Source of the DNA: Candidatus Helarchaeota ASGARD archaeon Hel_GB_B
GTDB taxonomy: Archaea > Asgardarchaeota > Lokiarchaeia > Helarchaeales > HEL-GB-B
Length of the DNA stretch: 28,395 nucleotides
Reading direction: 5' to 3'
Assembly (NCBI GenBank): GCA_005191425.1
Contig: SUPR01000041.1
Coordinates: 1-28,395 of the forward strand
Position numbers and translations under genes: made by a program. Of the stretch, positions 9,833-16,132 are shown in pieces; within the stretch, counting starts at the first letter, position 1, and each line of letters begins with the position of its first letter. The notes under the pieces were generated by a model. That model did not search any database and was not told the origin of the DNA. It saw nothing but the letters and a program-made list of their open reading frames with translations.

Positions 9833-10768
9833 ATGGAACAAAAAAAAATTGTTTTTCTAGGATTAGATAATGCCGGTAAAACTTCATTTATAAGAGCATT
9901 TGATGAAAATTATAATGAAATTCAAAATTTGACACCTACCGTTCGGATAGAGCGGTCTAATATTGAAATACTGGACGTATCGATTTCTCGCTGGGATTGT
10001 GGCGGACAAGAGAAATTTCGTAAAGAATATCTTATGGAAGAATCTCAGGTATTAACTGAAGCTGATTATGTACTTTATTTTATTGATATTATGGCTGAAG
10101 ACAGATATGATGAAGCATTAGGGTATTTGAAAGACATAATTGAAGCCTATAAATTAACTGGTTTTATACCACCTTTCATGATTTGTTTACATAAAGCAGA
10201 TCCATCTTATATTGATATTGCGACAGTAAAAAAGAAGATGCTCCCTCGGTGGGAAATAAAAGATAGAGTAAACAGACTTACCGAGCGACTATCTAAACTA
10301 TTAACCGGTGTTAGTAATTCAATTAATTTAACATCAATATATGACCGTAATTCAATTTTAATAGCTTTTTCAAAAGTCTTGAAATCATTTACCCCCAAAT
10401 CCGAATTAATAGACCTTGTTAATGTAATACTTGTTGAATTTGTAAAGAAAAATGACCTTCTCGCATCTTCAATAATTGAAAGAAAATCGTTATTATATAC
10501 TGAATTTAGTGTTGACCCAAAATCTAAAGAATTGTTCTCTGCATTATTAATGAACGGACTTATTTTTTACGAAAATATACAAGTGGTAAAACGCATATTT
10601 AAAATGACTCTTTTGATTGAGAATTATCGCGTGATGTTTACAAGTTATATAAAAAACAATCGAAGATATTTCTTAACTATAATGGCAAGGCTTGAGTCTG
10701 ATTTAACCAAAATAATCGATGAATTTGAAACCAAATATTTTGATAGGATATGTACAATAGTTGATTAA
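9833..10768 (+). CDS. Rag/Gtr1-like small GTPase with a C-terminal roadblock-like domain (Asgard eukaryotic signature protein)
   Basis: G1 GLDNAGKT, G2 PT, G3 WDCGGQ, G4 HKAD, G5 TSIYD. HKxD and TSI[WY]D are Rag-type rather than the Arf/Rab NKxD. A C-terminal alpha/beta extension of about 125 aa follows. Confidence 0.85.
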   Translation: MEQKKIVFLGLDNAGKTSFIRAFDENYNEIQNLTPTVRIERSNIEILDVSISRWDCGGQEKFRKEYLMEESQVLTEADYVLYFIDIMAEDRYDEALGYLKDIIEAYKLTGFIPPFMICLHKADPSYIDIATVKKKMLPRWEIKDRVNRLTERLSKLLTGVSNSINLTSIYDRNSILIAFSKVLKSFTPKSELIDLVNVILVEFVKKNDLLASSIIERKSLLYTEFSVDPKSKELFSALLMNGLIFYENIQVVKRIFKMTLLIENYRVMFTSYIKNNRRYFLTIMARLESDLTKIIDEFETKYFDRICTIVD

Positions 10769-11127: not shown

Positions 11128-13701
11128 GTGATTGGAGTTTTTACTATGGATAAAGAAAATTCGGAGAAAATAGCTGAAGAGGTATTAACAGAATTAGGGC
11201 TTAATGATACAGAAGTATTAGCGTATTTATCAATTACTGGTAGGGGTGCTGTAAGTATTGGTGAAATTTCGATTCATTCAAATGTTAAAGAAGTTGAAGC
11301 TGAAAAAATAGTAAGAAAATTACTTGATATTGGATTGTTAAAAGAAATACCTGGAAAAATACCGCGATTTCAAGCAATACCACCATACACTGCATTATTA
11401 AAACAATTAGATGAGTTTCAAAGTGAAATTTCTGAGTTGAGAGAACGAGTCCCACTGGAATTAAAAAATCAATTCTCATTATTTGTTGATAGTATGGGGG
11501 AGATTACTGGTCTTCAGGATTTTCTTGCTTATGTAAGATTAATTAAAGACGAAGTTCCGCAAGCAATGGTACAACAATTCAACAAATTTGAAAGTGAATT
11601 TGAGAAATTTAAGCAGATTGAGCAATTTAGTGATTTTATAAATACTATTAAAACTGAAATTCCAAAACAATTGTCAAATAAACTTCAAAATATGCAAAAA
11701 CAAGTATTATCCACTTCTGGACTTGAGAATTTTAGAGAATTAGTAAAATATTTAAAACAAGAAATTCCGGAACAATTACAAACTGAATTTAAAAATATAG
11801 AAACTCAAACAAAAAATGTTTCTGGATTTCAAAATATGTTAAATTTTATTAATAATGCAAAATCTTCCATACCTGATAAGATGATGTCGCAATTTAATGC
11901 GATAGAAGACGAATTTAAAAAAATTTCTGGTCTTAAGGATTTAAGAAATTTTGTTTCTGATTTAAGCAAAAATATTCCTTCAAAATTAGCAACTCAATTT
12001 AATAGTATTGAGAACGAAGTGAAAAAAGTAAGTGGAATGGAAGAATTAGCCAATTATGCAGCTCAATTAGCTACTACTATCCCAGCTAAAATGACTTCTG
12101 AATTTTCTGAAATTGATAATCGATTAAAAAATGTAAGTGAACTTGTTTCTTTCAAGGCTTTCATTCAAAACCTAAAAGAAAATATACCCCAAGAGTTGAG
12201 TTCTGAATTTGCAAAATTTAAAGAAGAGATTCAAAAAGTTAGAGGGAAAATAATCAACACTTCTCAAGAACAATTCAGTGAATGGCTCGCTATTATGGAC
12301 GATATTTTCAGAGATTATATCAACCAATTTATACAAGATATTGCTATTGGTGAGATTGAAAAATTAAGGTTATTTTTTGAAAAGCAAATCATTTTAGGAG
12401 TTACCAATATTTTGTCAAAAGTAGAAAACCAAGTAGTCCAAGCGTCCTCTAGTGTGTCTCAAGAATTTGAGCGCTTAAGAAAATGGCTTTCTGAAAATGT
12501 TATTAAAAGAGTTCAAATTGCGCTTTCGGAAGTTCAGACAAGTGCTACTGTAGTATCAACTGCGGTTGATCAAGGTATAAAAACGTTAGGTGATTGGTTT
12601 ACTGCCAAAGTCGTTAAACAATTAAGCTCCACGCTTTCTGAAATTGAAAAAGGAGCAAACGAAGCAGTTAAAAATATTGAGAGCAGTGTCGGGCATTTAA
12701 AAGAGTGGTTAACCAGTGATGTCATAAACAGGTTTACTGCAGCATTGAACGAAGTAGAACAAGGTTCTAATGAAGCTTATATGTCTGTAGAACAAGGATT
12801 CCAAAATCTTGAATCATGGTTTAGGTCTGAGGTAATTCAGAACATAACCACTGCTCTAGAAGAAGTTGAGCACGGAGCTGACTCTGCTACTGATCTCATC
12901 CAAAAGGAATTTGAAAAATTTAACTCTACAATTGGTGATAAAATTATCTCTACAGTTGACGAAATAATATCCAACTTATCTTCTCAAATTTCAGAAGCAT
13001 CTAAACTTGTTACTGAAGGTTTTGCTGGTTTAAAATCTCAGTTAGAAACTAATGTTGTAGAAACTGCAAAGACTACTCTGGCAAAAGTCGAGGAAAAAGT
13101 TGGTTCAGCTTCCGAAGTAATTTCTAAATCAATGGACGGTATGCGACAGACTTATTCTGATAAAGTCGTATCCGCAACTCAAAAAATGCTAGACGATGTA
13201 GCTGAAAGGATAAATCGATCTCAAATTACTATGTATTCTCTATGGGAACGCGCAAAATCTATGGTGACTTACAAATTTGATGAAGTTTGGTTTGTTATTG
13301 GGCGCGAGGCTGCTATTGCACAAATCAATGAAACTATTAGCAGAGTAAAAGCTAGAATTCTCATTGTAGCCCCAAGCTTAGAAGATATTGATATAGTGCC
13401 AATTCTAAGCACTAAATCTCATATAGCTGTTAGAATCGCGACTTATGTCGACCTTAATTCTCGAGATCATATGGATAGACTTCATAAACTAGCACAAAAA
13501 GAAAATCTACAAATCAGAAATTATCCCGATAAAAACATTTGGGGGATTTCTAGGGAAAATGAGGAGGTGTTTATTGGAGCTGTATCTGCGAGTACTGGCG
13601 AAATTGCCGGAATTGCATCTGTCATTGGTGAACACCAAAAAATGTTTGTCCCCATCTTGGAAGACTGCTGGTTAAAAGCAAAAAAGTATGTAATGAAATA
13701 A
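11128..13701 (+). CDS. TrmB-like winged-helix protein with a long helical-repeat insert and a TrmB-like C-terminal domain
   Basis: N-terminal LTELGLNDTEVLAYL...LLDIGLL...RFQAIPP matches the TrmB wHTH. The C-terminal ~145 aa (WFVIGREAAIAQINETISRVKARILIVAP) resembles the TrmB effector/PLD-like fold. The start may be ATG 11146. Confidence 0.7.
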   Translation: MIGVFTMDKENSEKIAEEVLTELGLNDTEVLAYLSITGRGAVSIGEISIHSNVKEVEAEKIVRKLLDIGLLKEIPGKIPRFQAIPPYTALLKQLDEFQSEISELRERVPLELKNQFSLFVDSMGEITGLQDFLAYVRLIKDEVPQAMVQQFNKFESEFEKFKQIEQFSDFINTIKTEIPKQLSNKLQNMQKQVLSTSGLENFRELVKYLKQEIPEQLQTEFKNIETQTKNVSGFQNMLNFINNAKSSIPDKMMSQFNAIEDEFKKISGLKDLRNFVSDLSKNIPSKLATQFNSIENEVKKVSGMEELANYAAQLATTIPAKMTSEFSEIDNRLKNVSELVSFKAFIQNLKENIPQELSSEFAKFKEEIQKVRGKIINTSQEQFSEWLAIMDDIFRDYINQFIQDIAIGEIEKLRLFFEKQIILGVTNILSKVENQVVQASSSVSQEFERLRKWLSENVIKRVQIALSEVQTSATVVSTAVDQGIKTLGDWFTAKVVKQLSSTLSEIEKGANEAVKNIESSVGHLKEWLTSDVINRFTAALNEVEQGSNEAYMSVEQGFQNLESWFRSEVIQNITTALEEVEHGADSATDLIQKEFEKFNSTIGDKIISTVDEIISNLSSQISEASKLVTEGFAGLKSQLETNVVETAKTTLAKVEEKVGSASEVISKSMDGMRQTYSDKVVSATQKMLDDVAERINRSQITMYSLWERAKSMVTYKFDEVWFVIGREAAIAQINETISRVKARILIVAPSLEDIDIVPILSTKSHIAVRIATYVDLNSRDHMDRLHKLAQKENLQIRNYPDKNIWGISRENEEVFIGAVSASTGEIAGIASVIGEHQKMFVPILEDCWLKAKKYVMK
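11443..12240 (+). repeat. About 7.6 protein-level repeats of 35 aa
   Basis: Units with [IV]P at positions 3-4 recur exactly every 35 residues from aa 106: ERVPLELKNQF, DEVPQAMVQQF, TEIPKQLSNKL, QEIPEQLQTEF, SSIPDKMMSQF, KNIPSKLATQF, TTIPAKMTSEF, ENIPQELSSEF. They are diverged at the DNA level. Confidence 0.85.
12373..13260 (+). repeat. Eight protein-level repeats of 37 aa
   Basis: aa 416-711. Four consecutive units start with Trp exactly 37 residues apart (WLSENVI, WFTAKVV, WLTSDVI, WFRSEVI). The flanking units keep the hydrophobic register, and the array ends where the C-terminal domain begins (13261). Confidence 0.75.
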
Positions 13702-13804: not shown

Positions 13805-16132
13805 ATGAAAAAACATGCGACCATTATTATCAGTGGTATTGTACAAGGCGTTGGGTTTAGACCATTTATCTATATGGTAGCAGATTCATTAGGACTAAAT
13901 GGTAATGTATTAAATATGGGCAATGCAGGAGTTAAAATAGAAATCGAAGGGGAAGAAGATATCATAAATGAATTTATTAAAAAGATTAGATCTGATAAAC
14001 CAAAAATTTCCTCAATTGACGATTTGACAGTCCGGTGGTCTGACCGGTTAAAAAATTTTCTCAATTTTAATATTTTGAAAAGCATTGACGAAAAAGGAGA
14101 AAGCCTTGTATTACCCCCTGATATAGCAATTTGCGAGGAATGCCTAAAAGATTTTCAAGATAAAAAAAATCTACGTTTTTTTGAATATCCTTTTATTGCT
14201 TGTGCTCAATGCGGCCCACGATTTACAAGTGTCATTGATCTTCCCTATGACCGAGATAGGACAACAATGAAAAATTTCCCATTTTGTCCAGATTGTGATA
14301 AAGAATATAAAACAATTGGAAACCGCCGATTTCATGCTCAAACTTTTGCATGTAGAAATTGTGGCCCAAAATTCACTTTAAAGGAAAAAAATGGTGAGAC
14401 TTTATCTACTAAAAACCCAATTAAGACTGCAATGCAACTTTTAGATGAAGGAAATATAATCGCTATTAAAGGAATTGGTGGAATTCATATTGCATGCAAG
14501 ACTACTTCTGACGATACTATCTCCAAACTCCGTAAAAGAAAAAAACGCATAGCCAAGCCATTTGCAATTATGTGTCAAGACTTTAAAACACTTCAAACTT
14601 TTGCTTCACCCTCCCAATTAGAAATTACTGCACTAACTTCCTTCAGAAGACCGATTGTTTTAGTTAAAAAGTCTTATGATTATTATCTTTCTGACCTAAT
14701 TGCTCCAGACTTAGACTCAATCGGCGTCTTTTTACCATACTCTGGGATCCACTATTTATTATTTAAATATACAAATGAACCCGCAATAGTCTTAACTTCT
14801 GCTAATCGGTCTGATGAACCAATGATAATTTCAAATGAAGTTGCACTAAGAAAGTTAAATGACCTTGCTGATTATTTTCTATTACATGACAGAATTATTT
14901 ATCAACGTGCTGATGACTCAGTATTAATTGTAAATCAAGGTATACCTACATTAATACGAAGGTCTAGAGGATATGTCCCTCAATGGATCAATACTCCTAT
15001 CAATATTGATGATGTGGTAGTTGCACTCGGAGCTGAAGAACGAAATACCGGGTGTATCTTAAAAAGAGGTCGTGCGTATTTTACACAGCATATTGGTAAC
15101 TTGACAAATATAGACCAATTTGAATTTGAGATAAGTGCTATTAAGCACCTTATGAAGCTAACTAGAACTCAAGATGCAAAAATTTATTCATGCGATTTAC
15201 ACCCCCAATTTTTAAGTACAAGACTTGCATTTGAACTAGCTAAAGAAAAATCCGCAAAAATTATCCCAGTCCAGCATCATTTTGCACACGCAGCCAGTTT
15301 AATGGCTGAACATAATTTAAAAGAGCCCATTATCTGTATTTCATGCGATGGTTTTGGTTTTGGTCTGGACGGGACTGCATGGGGAGGTGAAATAATTCTA
15401 AGTAATTATTCTAAAATGGAGCGCCTCGGGCATATAGAACAATATATGATGCCAGGCGGAGATCTTTGTACAAAATACCCTGTAAGAATGCTCAGCTCTA
15501 TTTTATCTAAAATTTTTTCATTTGACGAGCTTCGACTATTTATTAAAAATAAATATGTTAAATACCTTCCTTATAGAGAAAAAGAACTCGAAATTTTGAT
15601 TAAACAACTCCAGAACAAAATCAATCTACCCAAAACCACCAGTTGTGGACGAGTATTAGATGCGATCTCCGCACTTCTAGATATCTGTTATGTCCGTACA
15701 TATGAAGGGGAGCCTGCTATGAAATTAGAGGCTTTTGCGAGAAAAAGTGAACAAATAGAGCATATTTTAGAACCCCAAATACATAAAATTAATGGAAAAT
15801 TAGTATTAAATACAACGATATTATTTGAAGAATTAATAAATTCATTAAAAAATCATGTCAATAAAAGTATTTTAGCATACCAAGCTCAAGATTATATCAG
15901 CAGAGGGCTTGCCTCTATTGCAATAACATTAGCTGAAAAATACGATATTAAATTAATCGGATTCTCAGGTGGAGTCGCATTTAATACTATTTTTACTCAT
16001 AATATTAAAGAAGAAATCACTAAAAACGGTCTAAAATTTATTCAACATAGACAGGTCCCACCTGGAGATGGAGGAATTTCCTTAGGACAAGCTGTTATTG
16101 CTGCCTCAAAATTTATTAAATTTGAATTCTAA
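13805..16132 (+). CDS. hypF: [NiFe]-hydrogenase maturation carbamoyltransferase HypF
   Basis: Acylphosphatase domain (GIVQGVGFRPF), two Zn fingers (CEEC..CAQCGPRF; CPDC..CRNCGP), YrdC-like domain (KGIGGIH, TSAN), Kae1-like domain (DLHP, QHHFAH, PPGDGGISLGQ). Confidence 0.97.
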   Translation: MKKHATIIISGIVQGVGFRPFIYMVADSLGLNGNVLNMGNAGVKIEIEGEEDIINEFIKKIRSDKPKISSIDDLTVRWSDRLKNFLNFNILKSIDEKGESLVLPPDIAICEECLKDFQDKKNLRFFEYPFIACAQCGPRFTSVIDLPYDRDRTTMKNFPFCPDCDKEYKTIGNRRFHAQTFACRNCGPKFTLKEKNGETLSTKNPIKTAMQLLDEGNIIAIKGIGGIHIACKTTSDDTISKLRKRKKRIAKPFAIMCQDFKTLQTFASPSQLEITALTSFRRPIVLVKKSYDYYLSDLIAPDLDSIGVFLPYSGIHYLLFKYTNEPAIVLTSANRSDEPMIISNEVALRKLNDLADYFLLHDRIIYQRADDSVLIVNQGIPTLIRRSRGYVPQWINTPINIDDVVVALGAEERNTGCILKRGRAYFTQHIGNLTNIDQFEFEISAIKHLMKLTRTQDAKIYSCDLHPQFLSTRLAFELAKEKSAKIIPVQHHFAHAASLMAEHNLKEPIICISCDGFGFGLDGTAWGGEIILSNYSKMERLGHIEQYMMPGGDLCTKYPVRMLSSILSKIFSFDELRLFIKNKYVKYLPYREKELEILIKQLQNKINLPKTTSCGRVLDAISALLDICYVRTYEGEPAMKLEAFARKSEQIEHILEPQIHKINGKLVLNTTILFEELINSLKNHVNKSILAYQAQDYISRGLASIAITLAEKYDIKLIGFSGGVAFNTIFTHNIKEEITKNGLKFIQHRQVPPGDGGISLGQAVIAASKFIKFEF

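Follow-up and report, generated by a model that had tools for sequence, protein, structure and literature searches.

A TrmB-type protein from an Asgard archaeon with two periodic repeat arrays of near-constant length

The window analysed here is a 28,395-nucleotide stretch of contig SUPR01000041.1 from the Asgard archaeon Candidatus Helarchaeota Hel_GB_B, and at 11128-13701 it contains a gene for what we refer to as the stalk protein. Our analysis confirmed that this protein is made up of four parts, namely a TrmB-type winged helix, eight repeats of 35 amino acids (aa), eight repeats of 37 aa, and a C-terminal domain like that of TrmBL2. No prokaryotes are closer kin to eukaryotes than the Asgard archaea, and TrmBL2 is one of a small number of chromatin proteins in archaea whose architectural role is defined. 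The window is AT-rich (~25-35% G+C) and belongs to a 3.5-Mb genome in 182 contigs. The gene is intact, with 0 insertions or deletions (indels), in contigs of four independent vent and sediment metagenome studies. Its open frame begins with GTG; the true start is probably the ATG at 11146 (Met7), because every orthologue N-terminus aligns to Met7. The whole protein is acidic (net charge -25; the 37-aa array alone, -15). The gene and the parts of its product are as follows.

11128-13701, plus strand: open reading frame of 857 codons from a GTG, from which residues are numbered throughout
11146..13701, plus strand: coding sequence of the stalk protein, read from the probable start ATG (851 aa)
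11185..11385, plus strand: TrmB-type winged helix-turn-helix, aa 20-86 (Pfam PF01978 and family profile)
11386..11442, plus strand: post-wing helix, aa 87-105 (PPYTALLKQLDEF...), corresponding to the start of the TrmB/TrmBL2 dimerisation helix (profile alignment reaching TrmBL2 residue 101)
11443..12282, plus strand: eight 35-aa repeats, aa 106-385 (autocorrelation, consensus)
12283..12372, plus strand: junction without repeats that joins the two arrays, aa 386-415 (WLAIMDDIF...; column entropy)
12373..13260, plus strand: eight 37-aa repeats, aa 416-711 (autocorrelation, Fourier and wheel analysis, model)
13273..13698, plus strand: phospholipase D-like (PLD-like) alpha/beta domain of TrmB/TrmBL2 type, aa 716-857 (AlphaFold2 model, Foldseek, profile)

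Both termini are related to TrmB, as an earlier note, drawn from the letters of the window alone, had proposed. At the N-terminus, the Pfam family TrmB (PF01978) matches aa 20-86 with an E-value of 1.6e-8 (34.7 bits, against a cut-off of 25.6). A profile of 41 N-terminal sequences, searched against the PDB, finds TrmBL2 (5bpd, E 3.6e-12) and TrmB (3qph, E 1.4e-11), and its alignment covers TrmBL2 residues 3-101. The motif PP-Y87 is invariant among orthologues. The ESCRT-II subunit SNF8 also occurs among the PDB matches of this profile (E 3.4e-4).

As a single sequence, the C-terminal domain has 0 matches in Pfam and 0 in the PDB. An 88-sequence profile of it finds TrmB 3qph as its best PDB match (E 8e-5), with 2f5t and TrmBL2 weaker, and aligns to TrmBL2 residues 81-262. 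The AlphaFold2 model of aa 640-857 has a predicted local distance difference test score (pLDDT) of 92.2; in it, a helix of 72 residues leads into an alpha/beta domain. With that model as query, the top Foldseek matches are eight TrmBL2 chains, from E 5.8e-11 (5bpd) to 8.7e-8; then come the PLD-fold nucleases Nuc (1byr, 9.3e-8) and NucT, and TrmB 2f5t (3.3e-7). On this model the domain is predicted to have a TrmBL2-like fold. Regulator_TrmB (PF11495) does not match even at E 10, and the model stops after the PLD-like subdomain. Because the PLD-like subdomain is present and the sugar-binding subdomain absent, we assign the protein to the TrmBL2 type. The canonical PLD motif HxKx4D was not found in aa 716-857, by inspection of the sequence and without structural superposition; the sole HxK there, H836-Q-K838, lies in the model's last helix, and the next Asp is 8 residues past the Lys.

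These two profiles also place the insert. Since the N-terminal alignment ends at TrmBL2 residue 101 and the C-terminal one begins at residue 81, the insert falls inside the TrmBL2 dimerisation helix: aa 87-105 and aa ~676-712 both align to that helix, with 610 residues between them. The earlier note had put the insert at about 600 aa. It is real and exactly periodic, at 35 and then 37 aa, far above shuffled controls.

The 35-aa units have the consensus xxVPxxLxxQFxxFExEFKKVSGLxxFxxFVxxLK. Autocorrelation of aa 100-380, scored with BLOSUM62, gives 1.53, 1.45 and 1.37 at lags of 35, 70 and 105 residues, against a maximum of -0.02 in 300 shuffles. All eight prolines of aa 106-385 stand at repeat position 4; pooled over four orthologues, 31 of 32 units have Pro4 and 20 have Gly23. 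Within a unit, helices start twice, at Pro4 and again at Ser22-Gly23, with the conserved N-caps VP-x-E and SG-L-x-E, and so each unit conforms by its sequence to a helix-break-helix with a Phe-rich core. Fourier power in this array is divided among periods of 3.18, 3.5 and 3.89, and there is no phase-continuous amphipathic stripe. The eighth unit (aa 351-385) retains the Pro and the first helix. The number of 35-aa units is accordingly eight, rather than the approximately 7.6 first counted; the count of eight 37-aa units made at the same time stands.

The 37-aa units, with the consensus WFxxDVIxxxxxTLxxVExxAxxASxxVxxxFxxLxx, are of a different kind. Autocorrelation of aa 400-740 gives 0.93, 0.85 and 0.43 at lags of 37, 74 and 111, against a shuffle maximum of -0.11. 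Leu14 occurs in 31 of 32 units over four orthologues. The partial Trp anchoring seen earlier holds: Trp opens four of the eight units here, and 20 of 32 over the four orthologues. There is a single Fourier peak, at a hydrophobic period of 3.70 (= 37/10), which stays in phase across ~300 residues. The core positions, 2, 6, 10, 13, 17, 21, 24, 28, 32 and 35, follow a 4-4-3 spacing, in which the unit divides as 11+11+15, and on a helical wheel the hydrophobic face spans ~120 degrees. This pattern is characteristic of hendecad-type coiled coils, right-handed or straight. In the AlphaFold2 model, a single unbroken helix of 72 residues runs through the last two units (pLDDT ~83-92). The Pfam family DUF7217 (PF23854) matches aa 454-599 with 37.5 bits, against a cut-off of 29; orthologue P0002 scores 26.3 bits, under the cut-off. 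DUF7217 is a family without known function, we found no paper that names it, and helical periodicity by itself may account for the match.

Conservation falls on the seam positions of both arrays, and variability is greatest at the exposed ones (entropy ~2). The best-conserved stretch of the whole spacer is aa 371-415, around the junction, with a mean column entropy of 1.22 versus 1.40-1.42 in the arrays; junction residues invariant in orthologues include D392, F394, I398 and F401. Tandem Repeats Finder reported no DNA-level repeat corresponding to either array. Profile searches of each array against PDB sequences gave chance-level matches only (designed helical bundles, haemagglutinin HA2 and CspZ), and ESM Atlas feature searches with each array alone gave no usable match.

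Much of what distinguishes the stalk became apparent from its orthologues. Ten full-length orthologues were aligned with the window protein (11 sequences, 31-77% identical). They comprise the retrieved proteins P0002, P0003 and P0024 and the products of eight genome loci, L008 being the contig that encodes P0002, and their hosts are Helarchaeota and Promethearchaeia metagenome-assembled genomes (MAGs), together with one MAG whose record is labelled bacterial. None of the 11 sequences has an indel in the 280 columns of the 35-aa array. The 330 columns of aa 386-715 contain one, a single-residue deletion in one sequence, and thus aa 106-715 are indel-free in nine of the ten orthologues, down to 25-30% identity. 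The globular domains (99 and 141 aa) bear up to 4-5 indel positions in the same alignment. Such constancy of length points to a ruler or to a rod that is packed precisely. Units of the same index are 25-74% identical between orthologues, and different units within one protein are 20-26% identical. Because same-index units are the more alike, the arrays are older than the orthologue group and have not been reshuffled since. The repeats are ancient, with ~21-25% identity to one another in the window protein.

Two further observations concern the orthologues. Eight of the ten carry an extra C-terminal tail of 110-140 aa that belongs to no Pfam family (P0002 aa 851-964; P0024 aa 841-994; loci L007-L010 and L012-L014). 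The tail is absent from the window protein and from its nearest relative, at locus L011, and it is not separately encoded here, since the gene ends at 13701 and the gene for HypF starts at 13805. The record labelled bacterial, locus L009 (DATKTP010000147.1), is titled Candidatus Deferrimicrobium sp., a bacterium; it has an Asgard orthologue and Helarchaeota-type neighbours, and is probably a mis-binned contig.

The stalk protein belongs to a much larger Asgard family, for which an exhaustive search gave 305 clusters (E <= 1e-3); 172 sequences were retrieved. Both the winged helix and the PLD-like domain are present in 96 of these, separated by spacers of 54-1538 aa (median 291) that fall into visible size classes. 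The profile of the C-terminal module is found in 148 of 151 sampled Asgard genomes, with 1-6 matches each, in open frames of ~170 to 1811 aa. There are six copies in the Hel_GB_B genome; the five paralogues are these.

L016:1005-4745, minus strand: giant paralogue C114, 1246 aa, with TrmB winged helix and PLD-like C-terminus
L017:1523-4894, minus strand: giant paralogue C93, 1123 aa, with TrmB winged helix and PLD-like C-terminus
L002:1489-2472, minus strand: short paralogue C181
L003:1474-2640, minus strand: short paralogue C118
L018:1036-2241, minus strand: short paralogue C83

The spacers of the two giant paralogues have 11-based periods (22, 44, 55 and 66). In the three short ones (327-401 aa), the PLD-like domain is accompanied by a coiled coil of heptad type (periods 14, 21, 28 and 35), and there is no winged helix. 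Repeat number, which the earlier note had thought worth comparing among Asgard homologues, is invariant among orthologues and differs widely only between paralogous subfamilies. Family members in the sampled Asgard genomes are all annotated as hypothetical. An ESM Atlas search with the whole of orthologue P0003 returned unnamed Promethearchaeota clusters only, with TrmB noted on 25-33% of their members, and our literature search found no description of an architecture combining a winged helix, a helical spacer and a PLD-like domain. Proteins of this architecture form an uncharacterised family that is near-ubiquitous in the sampled Asgard genomes.

The stalk gene lies between two other genes of the window.

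9833-10768: Gtr1/RagA-like GTPase gene, the upstream neighbour of the stalk gene
13805-16132: HypF gene, the downstream neighbour of the stalk gene

A functional tie to the Rag-like GTPase was considered and rejected: the adjacency is not conserved. The syntenic, 77%-identical orthologue at L011 shows synteny on both sides, with an FrhB-like gene (L011:8890-9855, minus strand) in place of a Csx1 pseudogene and the GTPase. Contigs of three metagenome studies share a loose end: upstream of 10857, all of them depart from the window. The segment 8027-10857, which holds the frameshifted Csx1 gene and the GTPase, looks strain-specific. Near other orthologues, the GTPases are distant paralogues only, ~2 kb downstream, at three related loci. 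In four related loci, L007-L010, a gene for a chromatin protein of the Alba family lies ~1.7 kb upstream of the orthologue (e.g. L008:5928-6221). Alba was called by Pfam in L006 and L008 and by sequence clustering in the others, and the genomes are kin; the proximity is a weak hint at most.

The reading that we favour, though tentatively, is that the stalk protein is a homo-oligomeric architectural tether derived from TrmBL2, with the stalk as a spacer of fixed length, and that it is not a sugar-sensing repressor. The sequences and the model show the domain identities, both periodicities, the unbroken seam, the constant length, the age of the repeats and the breadth of the family; DNA binding, oligomeric state, extended shape and tethering are what we infer. 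On this reading, the TrmB plan would have been kept and the dimerisation helix expanded into a 610-residue, all-helical stalk of strictly constant length. The first part of the stalk would consist of the eight helix-break-helix units of 35 aa, and the second of the eight 37-aa units, joined into a single amphipathic helix, long and unbroken, of the kind found in right-handed coiled coils. By likeness to TrmB and TrmBL2, the chains might associate in parallel, as a dimer or tetramer. The stalk could then keep two sets of domains a constant distance apart, as a rigid ruler or spacer measuring tens of nanometres: the winged-helix heads, which presumably bind DNA, and the PLD-like tails, which presumably oligomerise or dock. 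The outcome would be DNA tethered, or bridged, at a defined distance. The chromatin spacer that the earlier note entertained would fit both the kinship with TrmBL2 and the fixed length.

Several points weigh against such a tether. DNA binding by the heads is presumed from homology only, and the recognition helix is acidic family-wide: 44-54% of members have Glu at aa 56, 57 and 59. The mean net charge of the winged helix across the family is -0.8, slightly acidic, and the whole stalk protein is at -25. The head, whose family profile also matches SNF8, may be one that binds protein. The full-length AlphaFold2 model, made with four orthologues, has a pLDDT of 42.6 and is unusable for the stalk. 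If the 35-aa units folded as a compact solenoid of hairpins, as they could, the spacer would be far shorter. Finally, no conserved gene neighbour among the related loci compared points to a partner or a process.

Other readings use the same evidence differently. The chain might double back on itself, the 35-aa array running out and the 37-aa array returning, so that eight units pair with eight in an intramolecular antiparallel bundle. The winged helix would then sit beside the PLD-like domain and aa 371-415 would form the tip, a geometry like that of SMC or Rad50 arms without the ATPase. The equal numbers of units (8 + 8), their near-equal lengths of 35 and 37 aa and the strong conservation of the junction all agree with a fold-back rod; paired arms would impose length invariance on both arrays, and the globular domains adjoin each other in TrmB and TrmBL2 (PMC4877046). 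Attractive as it is, we nevertheless regard it as unlikely. The hydrophobic periods of the two arrays differ (~3.5 with phase breaks versus a clean 3.70), an awkward basis for two helices to pair regularly; the 37-aa array has an unbroken hydrophobic seam of its own, and the spacers of the paralogues are not obviously two-part. A complex prediction of aa 87-380 with aa 381-716 gave an ipSAE interface score of 0.01-0.02, against a mark of 0.32; the fold of the partners is uncertain in this prediction, which speaks neither for nor against folding back. If the 35-aa units stacked instead, as TPR or PPR units do, they might bind a protein or nucleic-acid ligand, and the stalk would be a platform and not an inert spacer. 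The two conserved helix N-caps in each unit, the Phe-rich core and the discontinuous hydrophobic phase all suit such a solenoid, and the low-confidence full-length model breaks helices at both N-cap sites. A two-helix unit of 35 aa is also the PPR format, and a designer PPR is a marginal match (E 0.012). That match is at chance level, however, there is no Pfam match to TPR or PPR, and the variability of the exposed positions goes against a conserved ligand surface, all of which makes a solenoid rather unlikely.

Two further explanations we consider less probable still. The earlier note had raised the first: a DNA-binding protein bound to membrane or lipid, with the arrays lying on the lipid surface in the manner of exchangeable apolipoproteins or of lipid-droplet proteins such as perilipins. 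The period of 3.70 is near the 11/3 of lipid-surface helices, and Trp and Phe border the wide hydrophobic face. The Pfam family Apolipoprotein scores 25.5 bits with the stalk protein, 61.6 with paralogue C93 and 80.6 with C114. Every one of these scores is under the cut-off of 90, however, and the analogy finds no support in other respects either: the polar/non-polar interface of the 37-aa array has no Lys/Arg belt (K/R 0.04-0.18, D/E 0.24-0.30), that array is net -15, and the Pro-punctuated array lacks the continuous amphipathic stripe. We consider lipid binding of this kind very unlikely. Least probable of all, in our estimation, is an ordinary TrmB-family transcription factor with a long linker that has no function. 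The TrmB winged helix and the TrmB-type C-terminal domain are both there, and many TrmB paralogues are plain regulators. A functionless linker, however, would not stay indel-free over 610 residues at 25-30% identity while the globular domains take indels, nor would it preserve seam positions. The earlier suggestion that this is no simple repressor is borne out to the extent that an ordinary sugar-sensing TrmB is unlikely, given a PLD-like subdomain only and no match to Regulator_TrmB.

What is new here is the invariance of length, the age of the repeats, the 11+11+15 seam, the pair of helix starts in the 35-aa unit and the phylum-wide family. The present orthologue group is the cleanest case, with two exactly periodic arrays and one single-residue indel in the whole spacer. 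It is conceivable, although something of a long shot, that the family as a whole is a phylum-wide Asgard system of molecular rulers, by which chromosomal DNA is tethered or bridged at set distances, and in which the paralogues provide the different lengths (spacers of 54 to 1538 aa). If true, this would be a chromatin-organising or nucleoid-anchoring scaffold without a described counterpart in other archaea, and would bear on the origin of cell-internal organisation in the lineage nearest to eukaryotes. Should the heads bind DNA, the stalk protein would be a long-range DNA tether of a new class; should they not, a transcription-factor scaffold would have been re-used for another role.

Among known systems, several resemble the stalk protein in parts. 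Apolipoproteins A-I, A-IV and E (PF01442) share with it long tandem amphipathic helices, some of them Pro-punctuated in the apolipoproteins; it differs from them in its score with their family, well under the cut-off, and in an acidic 37-aa array without the class-A charge pattern. No ABC ATPase of the SMC/Rad50 type appears in the Pfam and NCBIfam scans, the ends of the protein being a winged helix and a PLD-like fold, and for aa 100-400 there is no Pfam match to PPR or TPR repeats at E up to 10. Hendecad coiled coils and phage tail tape-measure proteins are like the stalk in the 11+11+15 division, the 4-4-3 spacing, the period of 3.70 and the constant length, and some tape-measure families in PHROG match weakly (E 1e-5 to 1e-3). 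The likeness is one of composition and periodicity, in a locus without phage context, and tape-measure proteins serve as an analogy only.

The closest relatives are TrmB and TrmBL2. TrmB and TrmBL2 are built to one plan—winged helix, dimerisation helix, C-terminal domain—and only TrmB and TrmBL1 have an extra, sugar-binding domain (PMC4877046). With TrmB of Thermococcus and Pyrococcus (3qph, 2f5t), the stalk protein shares the winged helix and the PLD-like first effector subdomain; unlike TrmB, it has no C-terminal sugar-binding subdomain. TrmBL2 of the Thermococcales (PDB 5bpd, 5box and 5bqt) is both a global repressor and an abundant component of chromatin; it builds stiff nucleoprotein filaments and brings SMC to a stall (PMC4877046, PMC11840125, PMC3031468). 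Its dimerisation helix promotes dimers, and the protein is tetrameric (PMC4877046). The stalk protein differs from it in host (Asgard, not Thermococcales), in an identity of only ~15%, in a more acidic recognition helix and, above all, in construction: TrmBL2 has ~264 aa and a single dimerisation helix, and the stalk protein has ~610 residues of arrays. The NCBIfam equivalog for TrmBL2 (NF041141) gives 19.2 bits, against a cut-off of 530, and with the N-terminus only. The two proteins correspond in three respects: their homologous parts (winged helix, amphipathic helix, PLD-like domain) come in the same order, neither has the sugar-binding subdomain, and TrmBL2 is the best PDB match of both ends, by profile at the N-terminus and by Foldseek at the C-terminus.

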